Shown here: one piece after another, positions 1 through 6,067 of the stretch
Layout: every line of letters starts with the position of its first letter
Position numbering within the stretch: the stretch's first letter is position 1
Assembly: GCA_028704295.1 (NCBI GenBank)
Contig: JAQVLF010000001.1
Location: 2,537 to 66,536 of the forward strand
Source of the DNA: Minisyncoccota bacterium
GTDB lineage: Bacteria > Patescibacteriota > Minisyncoccia > Minisyncoccales > Minisyncoccaceae
DNA: 64,000 bases
Direction of reading: 5' to 3'
The notes under the pieces: generated by a model
The model's database searches: none
What the model saw: the letters and a program-made list of their open reading frames with translations, nothing else
Told to the model about the DNA's origin: nothing
Program-made: the position numbers and the translations under genes

Positions 1-266
1 TTGCATTTTCTGTAAAATTCTGGATTATTCATAACAATCTGATATTTGTACTCATTCCAAACATTTAGATTAATCCTTTTAAGACTTTCCATATCCCCCT
101 TTTCTATTAGTTTAATATTATTTTTTAACTCATTGGTAGCAATCTCTGTTATATTTGTATTTATCTTATCCCGTTGTAATTTTTCACAATAAGGTATAAA
201 AAGAGCAACCAATACCGCTAAAAATGTAGCCATTGCCGAAACGGCCTCCCAACAGATCTCACTCAT
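1..266 (-). CDS. hypothetical small membrane protein, truncated by the window edge
   Basis: The ATG at 266..264 overlaps the stop of ORF 259..441 by 8 nt, and the frame stays open to position 1. The N-terminus MSEICWEAVSAMATFLAVLVALFIPY contains one hydrophobic helix. It is absent from the ORF track because it is truncated. Confidence 0.3.
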   Translation of the reverse strand, partial: MSEICWEAVSAMATFLAVLVALFIPYCEKLQRDKINTNITEIATNELKNNIKLIEKGDMESLKRINLNVWNEYKYQIVMNNPEFYRKC

Positions 267-441
267 ATTTTTTAAATTTAATATTTTTATTACTCATCTT
301 ATTCTTTATTAATGATCCATATATAATATCTACTAATCTCAACAATTCAGTTATTCCCCTCAACGCTTCTTGATCAGATATCTCTTTATTAAACTCCTTT
401 CTATATATTAACTTAAATTTCTCTAATTGTTTTAATATCAT
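259..441 (-). CDS. hypothetical protein (60 aa) in the RT-linked gene string
   Basis: ORF-track entry. It overlaps the upstream ORF by 4 nt and the downstream ORF by 8 nt, which suggests translational coupling. I recognise no motif. Confidence 0.35.
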   Translation of the reverse strand: MILKQLEKFKLIYRKEFNKEISDQEALRGITELLRLVDIIYGSLIKNKMSNKNIKFKKYE

Positions 442-719
442 TTTTCCTTTTTCCCTATATAATAATTCCCTCCATTATTGGCTATCCATTCTCTCAATCT
501 CTGCCCTCTTTCTGAATCTTTCCTACCAATCCTATGAATAAAACTAATTGTTTTACTAGGACTACCAAAACCAAATTCATTTTCTGTTTCTTTTCTATAT
601 TCTAACTCTATATAATACAAACCCTTAATCAAATATTCAATATTATCTAAAGATAATTTAGAAAAATCAAAATTTGAAAACAATAATTCTTGACCTGTTA
701 AACTAGGAAAGTTTGGCAA
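438..719 (-). CDS. hypothetical protein (93 aa) in the RT-linked gene string
   Basis: ORF-track entry on the same strand and tightly packed with its neighbours. I recognise no motif. Confidence 0.4.
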   Translation of the reverse strand: MPNFPSLTGQELLFSNFDFSKLSLDNIEYLIKGLYYIELEYRKETENEFGFGSPSKTISFIHRIGRKDSERGQRLREWIANNGGNYYIGKKEK

Positions 720-794
720 AAAATAATATAAATTATCTATTCAACAAATTCCATTTTTGCCAATTTCTATATTTTATTTATTTCTTTTTCGTGT

Positions 795-1499
795 TTATTT
801 GTCATTTTTAATAATCTTATTTTTATTTTGTCCATCCATAAAAGCATACATATCTACAATCTTTGCTTTTGTGTAAACAATACCTTCTATCTCCTTTTCA
901 CTATTAAAATCATATGTATGAAAATTATAAGAATCAATTATTTTCTTATTATCTAAATAAAAATCATATATCTTTGATAAGGATTTTTTATTCAATGAAT
1001 TAACTTTCATGCTCTTTTTAAAATATCTATCAAAAGCAGGCACATTCGCAAAAACACCGAGCATTATCTTTGTAATCAATGTATCGCTTGGACTATTTTC
1101 TTTACCCAATGCATCTTTTATTTTTTCTTTTATATCTAATAAGATATAAATATTTTTATCGATACTATAAGACGGAACATCTATTTCCCAAAGAATACGA
1201 TCTTGTTCTGAGATAACTCTTATAAGATTAGAAAAATTCTTAACACTTTTCTGGAGCAAAAAAGAACCACCCCTCATCATACCCCAACTTGCTAAATAAA
1301 ATCCCAACTGCAAACAACTCATTTGCATATTTTCTTTGTTAGAGATTTCATGAATTTTATCTTTTTTATAAAAAGAATAAAAATAATTATAACAAAAGTC
1401 AAAAGAGCAATATCTTTCATTGGGATATCTTCCATTATTTTTTCCCTTTCCTTTTAAAAAATAATCTATTTGCTTTTCTATATTTATTTTTTTATTCAT
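795..1499 (-). CDS. hypothetical protein (234 aa) in the RT-linked gene string
   Basis: A long ORF that overlaps the upstream ORF by 8 nt. It contains the block LGFYLASWGMMRGGSFLL, but I see no catalytic motif (no P-loop, HNH or TIR-like signature). Confidence 0.5.
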   Translation of the reverse strand: MNKKINIEKQIDYFLKGKGKNNGRYPNERYCSFDFCYNYFYSFYKKDKIHEISNKENMQMSCLQLGFYLASWGMMRGGSFLLQKSVKNFSNLIRVISEQDRILWEIDVPSYSIDKNIYILLDIKEKIKDALGKENSPSDTLITKIMLGVFANVPAFDRYFKKSMKVNSLNKKSLSKIYDFYLDNKKIIDSYNFHTYDFNSEKEIEGIVYTKAKIVDMYAFMDGQNKNKIIKNDK

Positions 1500-1710
1500 T
1501 ACTTTTGATCACTCTAACTACTGTTCCCATAATTAAATAATTAAGATATTGTAAATCTTTCTCGTCTAATATAATTGGACTTATCTTTAATAATGACTCC
1601 GATAATAATCTTATCTCACCATCCTTCCTTAAAATCTCTTCTGTATAAAAAGCATCTCTCTTTACCGGATGAAATATCCTCTTAACTTCTATGCCCTTTT
1701 TTTCATTCAT
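1492..1710 (-). CDS. hypothetical protein (72 aa) in the RT-linked gene string
   Basis: ORF-track entry that overlaps the next ORF by 8 nt. Confidence 0.4.
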   Translation of the reverse strand: MNEKKGIEVKRIFHPVKRDAFYTEEILRKDGEIRLLSESLLKISPIILDEKDLQYLNYLIMGTVVRVIKSNE

Positions 1711-1820
1711 TATAATTAAAATTATTAATTATTTATCTCCATAACTTGTTCATATTTATCATTGTTTTCTTCAATAATAACTCTATCTGTACAAATTGTA
1801 ACTTTTTTAATTTTAGCCTT

Positions 1821-2390
1821 TTAAAAATTATCTAAAGAATATTTCTTTTGCAATCCCTTTATTAATATATTTTTTATTTCTTCATGCTTATCAGCTTCTT
1901 TTATAATCACAAAAGCCGTGTCCGAAATAAAAAGATCGAACATTTTTCCATTAAAAATATATTTAAATTCTTTTTCATCTTTTCCATTATCACATTTAAT
2001 GGGCTCACTGTGTGAATTAACAAACATATTCTCATAATTTAATATTTCTTCGTTGTGCTCTGAATTACTAATTTCTATTCTATTAAAACAATTTATATTA
2101 TTCCCTTCGAATTGTTCTTCAGTTTGTTCCTTAATAAATTCTTTTATTGTTTTAGCAATTTCTTTAAAATCATCATAGGTTTGCAATGGATCATTGGGAA
2201 TTTTTATTAAAAGTTGGCAGATTTCTTCTCCTTCATATTTTCCATTCTCTCTATTCATTAAAAAATCTATAACCATTGAAGATATACCCCTACTATCAAC
2301 TCCTAAAAAAGATATTGTTAATAGTTCAATTCCTATTTCATTTTTATTCCAAAATTCTTCTATATTATTTTGTGCTTTGAATGCCATCAT
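1821..2390 (-). CDS. hypothetical acidic protein (189 aa) directly downstream of the RT
   Basis: The ORF starts 29 nt after the RT stop on the same strand. I recognise no motif. Confidence 0.5.
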   Translation of the reverse strand: MMAFKAQNNIEEFWNKNEIGIELLTISFLGVDSRGISSMVIDFLMNRENGKYEGEEICQLLIKIPNDPLQTYDDFKEIAKTIKEFIKEQTEEQFEGNNINCFNRIEISNSEHNEEILNYENMFVNSHSEPIKCDNGKDEKEFKYIFNGKMFDLFISDTAFVIIKEADKHEEIKNILIKGLQKKYSLDNF

Positions 2391-2418
2391 AACTTTTTTA
2401 TATTTTTTACTCTCAATA

Positions 2419-3456
2419 TCATAATTTTAAATTCATAATATTAATATCTTCACTCCTCACCTCTTTTTGCAATTGTTTTTCTCTTTCAATAATTGGAAAA
2501 TATTTCCTTGCTAAAAAAGGCTCTACGGAATTTAAATAATTACACCACCCCTCTAACCAAATTAAATAAGTATGTAATGGTTTCGATGTTTGATAAAAAT
2601 TCGAAGAATATTCATCTTCTCCCAATTTATCTAAAAAATAAAAATGCATTCTTAATAACTTTTTAATTTTCTTAGGAATTCTTGGCATCTCGTGATCAGA
2701 AACAGACAAACCAGTTACTATTTGACTTCTTCCCCTTTTCATGAATTTTGTTTTATTGTCATTCAAAACAAATCCATTTTTTCTTATTATACTACAAATA
2801 AAACCTAAATCTATATTATCGTTTGATGAAAATGTCATATCGTCCCCATAACGAGTATATGTATATATTTTTTCTTTTGAATGTTTAGAAAGTTCTTTAT
2901 CGATATTCATAAAAACCATATTTGATAAAATAGGGCTAGTATAAAAACCTTGAGGAAGAAAGTTTTCTATTGTTGATATTTTTGCCAATCCAGAAGCTAT
3001 GTCTTCATTCGCCCCTAACATTAAAAATACTTCTTTTACCTGATTAATTTTTATTGATTCAAAAAAATTCTTAACGTCTAAATTAATTACTATTTTTTTT
3101 CCGATATGATTCAATGCATTTGTTCTTATTCCCTTTCCTTTTACAAATCCATGGACACATTCTAATGGATTATAGTTATTCTCTAAAAATTTTCGTATAC
3201 TTTGCAAAGCAGTTTTAGAGCCTTGATTTATAGTTTCATATATCTTCCTTTTTTTTCCTTTTTTTGTATACAAATAAAAATATGCAAAATCTACAAAAGG
3301 ATTATCTTTATTCTCATCATCCAACGACTTTTTTTCCACGCAAACCTTCTCTTCTTTTAATAAATGATCTAGATACTTTAATGAAATACCCAAAAATTCT
3401 GCTAACTGGTCATTGTTTTTTAACCCTTTTATTTCTTTTAAATTTTGCATAGGCAA
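2419..3456 (-). CDS. retron-type reverse transcriptase
   Basis: The RT motifs are readable: NALNH followed by VINLDVKNFFESI, then LPQGFYTSPILSN, then YTRYGDDMTFSS (the YxDD box), then RSQIVTGLSV (the VTG motif characteristic of retron RTs). The 345-aa length is typical of retron RTs. The track start at 3456 is a TTG, and the first ATG is at 3450. Confidence 0.85.
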   Translation of the reverse strand: MPMQNLKEIKGLKNNDQLAEFLGISLKYLDHLLKEEKVCVEKKSLDDENKDNPFVDFAYFYLYTKKGKKRKIYETINQGSKTALQSIRKFLENNYNPLECVHGFVKGKGIRTNALNHIGKKIVINLDVKNFFESIKINQVKEVFLMLGANEDIASGLAKISTIENFLPQGFYTSPILSNMVFMNIDKELSKHSKEKIYTYTRYGDDMTFSSNDNIDLGFICSIIRKNGFVLNDNKTKFMKRGRSQIVTGLSVSDHEMPRIPKKIKKLLRMHFYFLDKLGEDEYSSNFYQTSKPLHTYLIWLEGWCNYLNSVEPFLARKYFPIIEREKQLQKEVRSEDINIMNLKL

Positions 3457-3475
3457 TAAAATACGAACATATTTT

Positions 3476-3552
3476 AATCCTTGGTAAGGATACGAATTAT
3501 GGTTAATATAGCTAACGAGTACGAACTCATACTCTCTAAATTACCAAGGATT
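3476..3552 (-). ncRNA. candidate RT-associated structured RNA element: a 12-bp perfect inverted repeat enclosing 53 nt
   Basis: aatccttggtaa (3476..3487) is the exact reverse complement of ttaccaaggatt (3541..3552). An inner hairpin gagt-acga-actc lies at 3517..3528. The element fills the gap between the DUF3800-like ORF and the RT start, and no U-run follows it on the minus strand. Confidence 0.35.
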
Positions 3553-4252
3553 AAAAAATAATCGAATTATTATCCTCCCCTATCATTAATTCATTTTTAC
3601 TATTATAATAAATTCCCTTATCTATATCATATATCATTCCAATCTTAGATTTAATTAATTTGTAATTTAAAACCCTACAAGGCTTAATCTTCACTCTATA
3701 TGCTTTTAAAAATATATGATTAACATAGTCAGTAATGGCCAATAATTTCTCTTTCTTCTTACAAATATTAACATTAAAATTAATTGTTTTTCCAATTTTT
3801 TTTGATACTCTTACCAACTCTTCCTTAAATACCTTTTTAGATATACTATTTTTAAAAATTCCATTTTCTTCAAAAAAAATACTAATATTATTATTTTTAT
3901 GTTGTAAAAATAAATTCTTAAAAAGTGCTCCTACCATCTTAATATAAATTTTTTCCTTGTCTTCTATAGTATTTTTACTAACCTTAATAAAAACCAAATA
4001 AGACCTGAAGGGTGCTTCTCTTAATAAACGGACAAATTCAGAATAAATATCTGGGTGATCCTCTGAGGCATGGAAACCTTTAAAATTTGGATTATTAAAT
4101 TGAAGTTTATTCCTTATATAATTCTCCTTGTTGATAATTTCTAATCTAAGGCTTTTAACATCTTGCACTATCGAGCAACCTAAAACAAAAATTTCACAAT
4201 TACTATCCACACTCAAACTTCCTCCTTCGTCAACGTAAAAACTTATCTCCAT
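3551..4252 (-). CDS. DUF3800-like protein
   Basis: The N-terminus FYVDEGGSLS...IFVLGCSIV resembles the yiDESG start of DUF3800. It also has a mid-protein FHASE and a C-terminal LLAITDYVNHIF, which resembles the qlADxva motif. It lies immediately upstream of the RT on the same strand. Confidence 0.55.
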   Translation of the reverse strand: MEISFYVDEGGSLSVDSNCEIFVLGCSIVQDVKSLRLEIINKENYIRNKLQFNNPNFKGFHASEDHPDIYSEFVRLLREAPFRSYLVFIKVSKNTIEDKEKIYIKMVGALFKNLFLQHKNNNISIFFEENGIFKNSISKKVFKEELVRVSKKIGKTINFNVNICKKKEKLLAITDYVNHIFLKAYRVKIKPCRVLNYKLIKSKIGMIYDIDKGIYYNSKNELMIGEDNNSIIF

Positions 4253-4320
4253 ATTTTCCTATAATTTTTTATTGCAATTTCTAATATATCCATAATATTC
4301 ATATTAAAATTAAAAAACAC

Positions 4321-4346
4321 CCAAATTAAAGGGTGTTCCCGTCGTA
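4321..4346 (-). terminator. intrinsic terminator downstream of tRNA-Gln
   Basis: On the minus strand the stem is aacaccc/gggtgtt (4325..4331 pairs with 4340..4346), followed by a U6 run (the plus-strand A-run at 4321..4326). Confidence 0.5.
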
Positions 4347-4425
4347 ATTAATTATTAATAATTTACTTAATATCTTAATCATATAAGTTTGTTTAATTTT
4401 AACGCATCTCGTACCGCGCTCAACT

Positions 4426-4499
4426 TGGCTGTGGGACTAGGATTCGAACCTAGATTAATGGGACCAAAACCCATCGTCCTACCGTTAGACGATCCCACA
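4426..4499 (-). tRNA. tRNA-Gln (anticodon UUG) with encoded CCA
   Basis: The reverse complement reads TGTGGGA TC GTCT AACGGTA GGAC G ATGGG TTTTGGT CCCAT TAAT CTAGG TTCGAAT CCTAG TCCCACA G CCA. It folds as a full cloverleaf with a TTCGAAT T-loop, and the anticodon loop TT-TTG-GT gives UUG. Confidence 0.9.
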
Positions 4500-4546
4500 A
4501 TATTTGTTTTTCAACGAATTTATCTTAATGTATTTTATTAAAAAAA

Positions 4547-5650
4547 TCAACTTTTTTTAGCTTGATAGAAATAATCTATCAAAGCTAATTCCATTGGAAG
4601 CTGAGGAATAGAAGAAAACTTCCTTTTATTCTCTGCTTCTAAAAGTAAATTAAGAATCAACTTCAAGTCTTCTCCAGTAAATCTCTCTGACTGACTTACC
4701 ATTCTCTCTTTTGTCTCTTTAGTCTCTCCAACAATAATATCATTTATCAAATCCTTATTAATCTTTAGAATAAGTAGCTTCCTTAAAAAATTAGTAATAG
4801 TTTTACTAAATTCTTCAATGTTTAATCCTCTCTCAATATTTTCATTCAAGTACTTTATTGCTAAAGGAATATTCTTATCAATTAAAAACTCTGTAAAGTC
4901 AAAAGCTAAACTTAAATCAACTAAACCAAGCATGTCTTGTATATCCTCAACCTTTATTTCTTTTTTAGAAGTAAAGTTTAGAATCTGATCAAATATTCCT
5001 TCTGCGTCACGCAAAGCTCCATCAGCTGAAGCAGCAATCAATTCTAAAGCTTCTTTCTCTACTATTACCCCTTCTTTTTGAGCAATCTCTTCTAATTTAG
5101 AAACAATTTCTTTAATAGTTAATTTGTAAAAATCAAATCTTTGACATCTTGATGCAATGGTAGAAATCATCTTATGAGCTTCAGTTGTAGCTAAAATAAA
5201 TACAACGTATTCTGGCGGTTCTTCTAATATTTTTAAAAGCGCATTGGCAGCATCTTTTGATAATTGATGAGCCTCATCTAATATTAGCACCTTATACTTT
5301 AATAAATTAGGCTTGTACCTAATAGAATCCCTGAGTGATCTAATATCATCAATTCCTCTATTTGAAGCTGCATCTATTTCAATTAAATCAACAGCACTTC
5401 CTTTATTAATTTCTTGGCACGCAACACATTCATTACAAGGTTCAAACCCTTTTCTGTTCTGGCAGTTTATAGCTTTAGCAAAAAGCCTTGCCATAGATGT
5501 CTTTCCAGTACCTCTATGCCCTGAAAACAAATAAGCATGAGCAATTGAATTTAACTCAATCTCATTTTTAAGAGTCTGTATTACATGGTTTTGAGCAGTA
5601 AAGTCTTTAAACTGCTGTGGACGATATTTTCTGTATAAAACTTGCTTCAT
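4547..5650 (-). CDS. dnaX: DNA polymerase III subunit gamma/tau
   Basis: The N-terminus YRKYRPQQFKDF is followed by the Walker A GHRGTGKTS, the zinc-module cysteines CQNRKGFEPCNECVAC, DEAH, and a sensor region SRCQRF. Confidence 0.9.
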   Translation of the reverse strand: MKQVLYRKYRPQQFKDFTAQNHVIQTLKNEIELNSIAHAYLFSGHRGTGKTSMARLFAKAINCQNRKGFEPCNECVACQEINKGSAVDLIEIDAASNRGIDDIRSLRDSIRYKPNLLKYKVLILDEAHQLSKDAANALLKILEEPPEYVVFILATTEAHKMISTIASRCQRFDFYKLTIKEIVSKLEEIAQKEGVIVEKEALELIAASADGALRDAEGIFDQILNFTSKKEIKVEDIQDMLGLVDLSLAFDFTEFLIDKNIPLAIKYLNENIERGLNIEEFSKTITNFLRKLLILKINKDLINDIIVGETKETKERMVSQSERFTGEDLKLILNLLLEAENKRKFSSIPQLPMELALIDYFYQAKKS

Positions 5651-5689
5651 ATTAAACTTATTCTACTACTTTAAAAAGTAAAAATCAAT

Positions 5690-5785
5690 AAAAAAATAGA
5701 GCTGCTTTGCATTATATATTAGGACGTGCGGTAACACCCAAAGCAGCCGCCCCTCCTCTTTTGTGCCCTAAGAGGAAGGGACTAC
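5690..5785 (-). ncRNA. candidate small structured RNA or leader upstream of dnaX (identity unassigned)
   Basis: This is a GC-elevated island with two hairpins. On the plus strand, gctgctttg (5701..5709) pairs with caaagcagc (5739..5747), and cctctt (5755..5760) pairs with aagagg (5770..5775). On the minus strand the first hairpin is followed by a U-run (the plus-strand A-run ending at 5696). Confidence 0.25.
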
Positions 5786-5822
5786 TTTAAGAATATCATA
5801 GAAAAAAGATAAGTCAATCAAT

Positions 5823-5877
5823 AAAAAAAAGGCATAGGAGGTAATCAGACTTTCGGAGTAAGTCTGGGCCTTATGCC
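5823..5877 (-). terminator. strong hairpin plus U8 on the minus strand: a terminator or tiny sRNA with no upstream ORF
   Basis: ggcata (5831..5836) pairs with tatgcc (5872..5877), and cagact (5846..5851) pairs with agtctg (5861..5866). The plus-strand A8 run at 5823..5830 gives a U8 tail on the minus strand. Confidence 0.4.
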
Positions 5878-5917
5878 AAAAAAAGGGCCACCCGTATAAT
5901 ATTACAAATAAATACAT

Positions 5918-5946
5918 TTGACAAGTTTAAAAAACAAATATATCAT
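5918..5946 (+). promoter_or_regulatory. sigma70-like promoter for the cysK-like/cysS operon
   Basis: TTGACA (5918..5923), a 17-nt spacer, then TATCAT (5941..5946), about 120 nt upstream of the ATG at 6068. A minus-strand TTGTCA-17-TATTAT overlaps the same site. Such matches are common in AT-rich DNA. Confidence 0.35.
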
Positions 5947-6067
5947 AGTCTTAATGAATTACAAAATAAGCACAACTTGTTGCTGTTCAAACTCTTTTTA
6001 AAGAGGTTGGTTTTGTTAAATAATAAATAGTAATAACCCGCCTCTTAATAAGAGGTTTTTTAATAAT

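Follow-up and report, generated by a model that had tools for sequence, protein, structure and literature searches.

Type VII retrons were defined by Mestre et al. in 2020 (NAR 48:12632) as a clade-4 reverse transcriptase (RT) combined with a DUF3800 protein, the two being either fused (VII-A1) or separate (VII-A2). The DUF3800 of this type has an N-terminal DE motif, a DEED set of acidic residues and a QxxD motif without its Q, and it was modelled as an RNase H2-like fold. Every characterised retron RT requires a cognate RNA adjoining its gene. For clades 4, 5 and 6, Mestre et al. detected no consensus non-coding RNA (ncRNA), and VII-A1 and VII-A2 were entered as 'nd'; they may have seen conservation near the RTs of these clades without defining a structure. 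In a 2026 preprint, VII-A1 and VII-A2 still count as types without an identified msr-msd, and the authors of a large experimental census guessed that the clade-4 RNA might be non-canonical. Here we describe a locus of this kind in a stretch of 64,000 nucleotides (nt) from a Minisyncoccota bacterium (assembly GCA_028704295.1, contig JAQVLF010000001.1, positions 2,537 to 66,536 of the forward strand), which we call the window. Positions 2426..4267 of its minus strand very probably represent a complete type VII-A2 retron in the order effector-RNA-RT, with the six open reading frames (ORFs) downstream as bystanders, and the spacer between the two retron genes holds a short structured RNA that, judged by comparative analysis, is a strong candidate for the RNA component of type VII retrons.

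The ORF listing of the window reproduced 8/8 minus-strand ORFs, including the partial one at the edge (1..266), at the coordinates where an earlier reading of the letters without database searches (the sequence-only reading) had placed them. That reading had proposed a retron-sized RT on the strength of three motifs. All are present (TNALNH; RYGDDM, with its YGDD box; RSQIVTGLSV, containing QIVTGL), and the key residues N111, A112, H115, Y201, D203, D204, V245, T246 and G247 do not vary among 24 aligned homologues. The size of 345 amino acids (aa) that it gave counts from a TTG codon (2419..3456); the NCBI annotation begins at the ATG at 3450 and has 343 aa, and the protein is identical to an NCBI protein from a metagenome-assembled genome (MAG) of 'Candidatus Pacebacteria bacterium'. 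Among the 70 RT models of PADLOC, the best match was RT_VII-A2 (274 bits, E 3.9e-82), followed by the fused RT-DUF3800_VII-A1 model at 211 bits, with all others at 208 bits or less. The gene directly upstream on the same strand, described earlier as DUF3800-like, matches the PADLOC model DUF3800_VII (102 bits, E 6.7e-30) and falls just below the threshold of the Pfam DUF3800 model (19.1 bits against 21). Its DEED set (D8, E9, E128, D175) is invariant in seven DUF3800 proteins of related loci, and its C-terminal motif reads AITD; that is, the Q of QxxD is missing. A search of PDB sequences with the DUF3800 profile gave no match, and a single-sequence AlphaFold2 (AF2) model had a predicted local distance difference test (pLDDT) score of 42.7, unusable for a fold search. 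By model scores and motifs we assign the locus to the published type VII-A2. The link between DUF3800 and retron type VII, which the sequence-only reading had mentioned, is correct in both the Mestre classification and the PADLOC models (RT_VII-A2 with DUF3800_VII).

To delimit the system we used the contigs of six distinct RT relatives, with RT identities of 75, 52, 42, 41, 39 and 37.5%. In all six, a DUF3800 gene of 228-258 aa is followed by a gap of 87-128 nt and then by the RT, and the same order recurs in further loci, drawn from genomes and metagenomes, of Flavobacterium, Ferruginibacter, Deltaproteobacteria and others; the two genes co-occur strictly, and in this order, across phyla. 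The contig of the 75% relative (L002) aligns by blastn to window positions 4267..2426 at 78% identity, with the alignment ending at the RT stop codon and no blastn similarity beyond it. By this alignment, the conserved unit stops at the RT stop codon.

The spacer between the DUF3800 gene and the RT is 94 nt long and contains a 28-nt inverted repeat; the sequence-only reading had missed the structured RNA here. The spacer folds into a 16-bp closing stem, P1, around a 7-bp hairpin, P2, with a free energy of -33.6 kcal/mol and a z-score of -5.6. The extended 5' arm of P1 overlaps the DUF3800 stop codon (3553-3551), and its 3' arm stops 10 nt short of the RT ATG at 3450; taken together, P1 and P2 end 10-24 nt upstream of that ATG. 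The spacers of the window and of the six relatives (7/7) share this one fold, with visibly compensatory differences. The invariant positions are the first and last pairs of P2, the A of its loop (A3527), G3516, A3503 within the variable segment, and C3488. The linker that follows the P1 5' arm contains no conserved G; the Gs that never vary occupy P2 positions 23, 29 and 35 as well as position 41, and no long hairpin is conserved 3' of P2. In Rfam, the spacer RNA has no counterpart: a scan of 1..6000 at E<=10 gave just the tRNA and two chance matches elsewhere, and a scan of the whole window at gathering scores gave no match to the spacer either.

From six sequences we built a covariance model (R1), which recovered the held-out relative L012 and found 11 further loci with one site each (L014-L018, L094-L096, L098, L102 and L103), the first five of which carry the five closest RTs of the genome scan. 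Every R1 site lies directly 5' of the RT gene and in its orientation; in ~150 loci of other retron types the model had no match on the RT strand. Three DUF3800 loci that R1 missed (L097, L099, L100) show an equal architecture by eye in GC-rich sequence, with hairpins such as GGGCGCG-AGU-CGCGUUC and GAAGGCG-AGU-CGCCUUC. A second model from 17 sequences (R2) added L101 and weak matches upstream of L105, L106 and L114. Two of these, L105 and L114, encode RT-DUF3800_VII-A1 fusions (508-527 bits) and have the two-helix element just upstream of the fused gene. Because the same RNA precedes the fused genes, it is tied to the RT clade and not to the 3' end of a standalone DUF3800 gene. The RTs beside which we found the element are exclusively of type VII, some VII-A2 and others fused VII-A1. 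It may extend to type VIII, another clade-4 type reported without an ncRNA: the match in L101 (123..202, 34.7 bits, E 9e-4) lies upstream of a partial RT on a 1.5-kb contig, and this RT scores 245 bits with the PADLOC model RT_VIII and 235 bits with VII-A1.

The search for further carriers also covered cultured strains, plasmids and viruses. Flavobacterium frigoris PS1 (L015) and F. gillisiae DSM 22376 (L017) are cultured carriers of both the VII-A2 retron and the RNA element; the RT of the former scores 440 bits with RT_VII-A2, and the RNA scores 79.7 bits in both. The best plasmid matches, considered as possible examples of type VII, proved to be retrons of type I-C and of a type XI/XII-like kind, and in these two non-type-VII plasmid retrons the RNA model was negative even with filters off. 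No exact match to the hairpin pattern was found in viral_contigs.

Covariation supports both helices. In a 20-sequence alignment (A5), 90.8% of the cells at paired columns hold standard pairs, compared with 34-44% when the partners are slid by 1-3 columns. Compensatory changes on both sides occur in 16/21 pairs, and the covariation score is 0.624 versus 0.235 in shuffled alignments; 0/500 shuffles reach the observed values. RNAalifold independently recovers both helices. The pairs also indicate the strand: cells with G.U number 34 against 7 with A.C, which places the covarying RNA on the sense strand of the genes. We considered transcription of the element from the opposite strand and rejected it, because R2 gave no antisense matches and G.U exceeds A.C. 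We likewise rejected a promoter candidate for the RNA, a sigma-70-like site at 3630..3602 matching at 10/12 positions, since such sites number 26 versus 32.8 expected in shuffled sequence. In many copies an AUUAC occurs inside the element, 6-27 nt before the UUAC(C) in the 3' arm of P1 (A5 columns 58-62; for example, L015 5877..5955 and L010 7912..7989), whereas the copy in the window has only AUUAAC. As pure speculation, this motif might be a second partner for the conserved GGUAA of the 5' arm, allowing alternative pairing or repositioning of the template.

On balance, we think it more likely than not that P1/P2 is the missing, non-canonical cognate RNA of clade-4 retrons (VII-A1 and VII-A2, possibly VIII), ~80-110 nt in length with neither msd stem-loop nor branching G, and with a cDNA that would be at most ~30 nt long or trigger-only. 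If this is true, a short or trigger-only cDNA would explain why the census recovered almost no clade-4 RT-DNA. Several points weigh against our overall explanation of the locus. Compared with a canonical msr-msd, the RNA lacks a long msd stem-loop, and the inner end of a1/a2 has neither a conserved G nor an opposing G pair; for these two reasons we call it a candidate cognate RNA and not a canonical msr-msd. Khan et al. obtained almost no RT-DNA from clade-4 retrons in Escherichia coli, so that cDNA synthesis from the RNA of this locus is only putative; such synthesis may be conditional or may need host factors. The inner four pairs of P1 (GUAA/UUAC) are conserved in sequence and scarcely covary, and their pairing is putative. 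Alignment A5 was fitted to the structure by the model, a circularity mitigated by the MAFFT-only alignment A4, which was not fitted to the structure and gives 88.1% paired cells versus 35-43%, with compensatory changes in 14/21 pairs. On the protein side, the RNase-H-like fold of DUF3800 is a prediction from the modelling of Mestre et al., and the literature that we searched holds no paper on a type VII RNA and no experiment on a type VII retron.

The alternative that survives best is that the spacer structure is a regulatory RNA and not a template. It might be processed by RNase III, act as a translational coupler or an attenuator between the DUF3800 and RT genes, or be an autoregulatory operator to which the RT binds. 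The scarcity of RT-DNA from clade-4 retrons in E. coli would fit such a role, as would the lack of a canonical branching-G context and of an msd stem-loop, and the closing stem is suitably placed for it, overlapping one gene's stop codon and ending 10 nt before the next gene's start. However, the same element is found upstream of fused RT-DUF3800 genes, which have no upstream gene to couple to, and no U-tract terminator lies 3' of the closing stem. The invariant unpaired G3516, A3503 and C3488, together with the invariant loop, imply specific recognition and not a generic hairpin, and the characterised retron RTs all need an adjacent cognate RNA. We consider a purely regulatory role unlikely.

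If P1/P2 is the cognate RNA, a mechanism can be proposed by analogy with characterised retrons. The RT would recognise the P2 hairpin through its invariant G...G-A...G...C-G and would copy part of the RNA into a short cDNA, for which the most plausible template is the variable stretch of 22-40 nt that ends at the invariant C3488 beside the closing stem. The complex of RT and RNA, perhaps with cDNA, would restrain the DUF3800 nuclease until a phage infection disturbs it, and the freed nuclease would then degrade nucleic acid, leading to abortive infection. Both reverse transcription and phage defence at this locus are putative.

A second alternative concerns the extent of the retron, whose fourth component might be orf189, as a lineage-specific acidic regulator or antitoxin-like partner. 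This ORF begins 28 nt after the RT stop codon on the same strand. The chance of a 189-codon ORF in DNA of 24% GC is, by a rough estimate, ~3e-8; its product is acidic (isoelectric point 4.7, with 36 D+E versus 22 K+R), and it lies between the retron and a sequence breakpoint at ~1640, outside both of the homologous blocks that these delimit. Against this, orf189 found only itself in an index of 5.8 billion proteins and in an exhaustive phmmer search of 1.84 billion representatives, and on those searches it is a strict orphan. It is absent downstream of the RT in L003-L013, and the 130 nt 3' of the RT in L002, 75% identical in its RT, have no similarity to it. A role for orf189 in the retron is in our estimation quite improbable.

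The sequence-only reading had gone further and joined the RT, DUF3800 and all six downstream ORFs into one extended, non-canonical defence operon. The ORFs are co-oriented, equally low in GC and, as it had noted, mostly closely spaced, apart from two larger gaps, one of 28 nt that follows the RT and one of 110 nt (from 1710 to 1821). In none of the six is a domain recognisable, a point on which that reading was right: significant matches are absent from Pfam, PADLOC, PHROG and NCBIfam, for orf234 as for the others. Yet the nucleotide homology with L002 ends at the RT stop, and the genes downstream of related RTs differ in every locus (a KAP NTPase; a 235-aa unknown protein with M78 peptidase/DUF4411; a methyltransferase; SLFN/AlbA on the opposite strand). 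The reading had itself stated that its proposal would fall if the ORFs next to the RT lacked conservation with it in relatives, and for the downstream ORFs this is the case: tblastn found 0 matches to the six ORFs in 173 RT neighbourhoods from genomes and metagenomes, throughout which DUF3800 recurs. Moreover, window positions 1..1640 are a ~95%-identical copy of an RT-free module, and this copy begins in mid-gene within a truncated S24 peptidase. An extended operon is thus refuted for five of the six ORFs and very improbable as a whole; what remains of the proposed defence system is the retron RT with its DUF3800 partner, a published type VII-A2 without any long downstream module. The six ORFs are bystanders, five of them belonging to a truncated, independently mobile module of the S24-peptidase/orf234/HNH type and one being the orphan. 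The last alternative, that the RT belongs to a group II intron, a diversity-generating retroelement or an Abi/UG defence-associated RT (DRT) system, can be dismissed as practically negligible, because its weak cross-matches to the group II model (35.5 bits against an NCBIfam cut-off of 300) and to Drt3a, Drt2 and Drt4 (41 against 200, 34 against 390 and 23 against 450) are far under the curated cut-offs compared with 150-274 bits for retron RT models, its retron-specific NAxxH and VTG motifs are invariant in the 24 homologues, and Rfam scans show no intron RNA domain.

The downstream module deserves a description of its own. Window positions 1..1640 are 94.9-95.3% identical in nucleotide sequence to L179 and L180 and 89-95% identical to L181. 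The homology to L179 and L180 begins inside orf72, at the breakpoint at ~1640. Residues 28-72 of orf72 match the last 45 residues of a 216-aa S24 peptidase at 93-100% identity, and residues 1-27 are unique, so that the ORF is a chimera. Since its C-terminus is that of the peptidase, orf72 is a truncation remnant, and the breakpoint marks a truncation or rearrangement junction. The recurring module starts with the S24 peptidase (216 aa, overlapping the next gene), orf234, a 120- or 132-aa gene and, in some cases, a 52-aa gene, and its tail consists of a 131-aa gene followed by an HNH_5 gene. On other contigs the tail is replaced by a pair of genes of a cyclic oligonucleotide-based antiphage signalling system (CBASS), encoding SAVED and SMODS. 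Examples of the module, with one tail or the other, are L179 477..3137, L181 896..4135 and L174 5358..9239. The module is a conserved 'head' with variable defence-like cargo, and it has no entry in PADLOC.

The family of orf234 is very large and unusually conserved: it has more than 2,260 matches of ~218 aa at 60-96% identity, in Patescibacteria, Bacilli, Methanobacterium and Woese-/Nanoarchaeota. The nearest relatives of orf234 are those within the module; distant members occur singly, next to GmrSD/Lon or to a methylase and BrxC, and in the contigs examined no RT was found near the module or near these distant members. A confident AF2 model of orf234 (pLDDT 86.7) is mostly alpha-helical, with no significant fold match in PDB or BFVD and no sequence match in PDB. 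An HhH-GPD glycosylase was considered and rejected, as the top fold matches had only E~1 and template modelling (TM) scores of 0.26-0.28, which is not evidence. Overall, orf234 resembles a gene of defence or mobile islands that has been transferred widely.

In the window, the small genes of the module have their counterparts in orf93, orf60 and the edge ORF. Within 438..806 (minus strand), the orf93 copy lacks the first ~29 codons of the 120-aa gene of L179-L181, and ~126 extra nt (322..449, minus strand) create orf60, bringing the arrangement closer to the 132- plus 52-aa version of L174 and L175. The module may be decaying in the window. The ~95%-identical contigs come from other assemblies, GCA_046128195.1 and GCA_028684255.1, the latter labelled 'Bacilli bacterium', and an identity of this order implies either very recent horizontal transfer or problems of MAG binning or labelling.

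Together, the retron and the six ORFs downstream of it make up a small island of low GC adjoining a tRNA-Gln gene: positions 1..4270 have a GC content of 22-27% compared with 29-34% in the nearby genes dnaX, cysK and cysS. The tRNA-Gln lies directly upstream of the retron, and the low-GC island starts right after it. The island is a juxtaposition of tRNA-Gln, retron, orphan gene and a 5'-truncated second module (Table 1). We found no attachment-site repeat of the 3' end of the tRNA-Gln within the window. A terminator-like hairpin, GGGAACACCC...GGGTGTTTTT, is present at 4313..4340 (minus strand), in the interval between the tRNA and the DUF3800 start (4253..4425). Type VII-A2 relatives of the retron sit in defence islands (L004 1302..13015; L008 145..2520; L003 3295..4713; L012 2782..4275), whose other genes include type I restriction-modification (HsdR/HsdM-S), KilA-N, M78 peptidase with DUF4411, an antitoxin-like HTH-SocA/Panacea gene, a KAP NTPase with a weak match to PADLOC PDC-S20, and SLFN/AlbA.

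Table 1. Features of the retron island and its flank, in window coordinates
Feature	Position	Strand	Evidence and remarks
tRNA-Gln(UUG)	4426..4499	-	ARAGORN; Rfam tRNA 62 bits; island flank, not part of the system
Conserved retron cassette (DUF3800 + RNA + RT)	2426..4267	-	blastn against L002
DUF3800 effector gene	3551..4252	-	233 aa; PADLOC DUF3800_VII; type VII family
Extended closing stem P1	3460..3568	-	inverted repeat with 28-nt arms, 86% complementary; minimum free energy structure
Candidate retron ncRNA core	3474..3554	-	81 nt; fold, covariance model matches, covariation, RNAalifold, conservation per column
P1 5' arm	3554-3541	-	core RNA
Linker	3540-3535	-	core RNA
P2 hairpin	3534-3517	-	GAGUAUG-AGUU-CGUACUC; 7 bp, AGU(U) loop
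Invariant unpaired G	3516	-	directly after P2
Variable segment	3515-3488	-	ends in invariant C 3488; 22-40 nt long across copies
P1 3' arm	3487-3474	-	core RNA
Retron reverse transcriptase	2419..3450	-	343 aa from ATG 3450; PADLOC RT_VII-A2, Pfam RVT_1
orf189	1821..2390	-	acidic orphan protein; outside the conserved retron
Separate mobile module, 5'-truncated	1..1640	-	~95% nt identity to L179 and L180; outside the retron
orf72	1492..1710	-	C-terminal part (1492..1640) is the S24 peptidase remnant
orf234	795..1499	-	member of the mobile module
orf93	438..719	-	TTG start; small gene of the mobile module
orf60	259..441	-	corresponds to a small gene of the mobile module
Edge ORF, partial	1..266	-	start of the module's 131-aa gene

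Compared with a canonical msr-msd such as that of Retron-Eco1/Ec86, the RNA of this locus shares the terminal inverted repeats (P1, resembling a1/a2) around an internal hairpin and the position directly 5' of the RT on the same strand, and its conserved small hairpin could play the role of the msr in RT recognition; at ~80-110 nt it is much shorter. The ncRNA of type VI (Retron-Sen3; bioRxiv 10.64898/2026.04.27.721009) offers a precedent, having been 'not determined' in 2020 and later defined by comparative covariance analysis, with a small conserved stem-loop that is essential for defence. Type VI differs in its clade-3 RT, its effectors (SP toxin and HTH) and its larger RNA (SL1-SL6, with SL3 of ~166 nt), which has no sequence or model similarity to the RNA described here. 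Type VII-A1 has the RT clade, the effector domain and a P1/P2 RNA upstream of the RT in common with the locus. It differs in that its RNA precedes the whole of a single fused ORF, whereas ours lies between two genes, and the RNA scores there are weak (21-24 bits) because the sequence has diverged. The closest system is type VII-A2 itself (RT clade 4 with DUF3800 protein cluster 2165), with which the locus shares the RT model, a separate DUF3800 with the DE and DEED residues, and an adjacent, co-oriented gene pair, without any difference in the proteins. The host is different, a Candidatus Pacebacteria MAG of the candidate phyla radiation (CPR), and where the published ncRNA is 'nd' the locus has a specific conserved RNA in the spacer. 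As a defence system, the locus adds one more ordinary example to a catalogued retron type. What is new is a defined RNA candidate for a type that had none, which turns an acknowledged gap into a testable hypothesis: the element is short, covarying, type VII-specific, conserved across phyla and present in cultured Flavobacterium, and its covariance model could improve the annotation of retrons.

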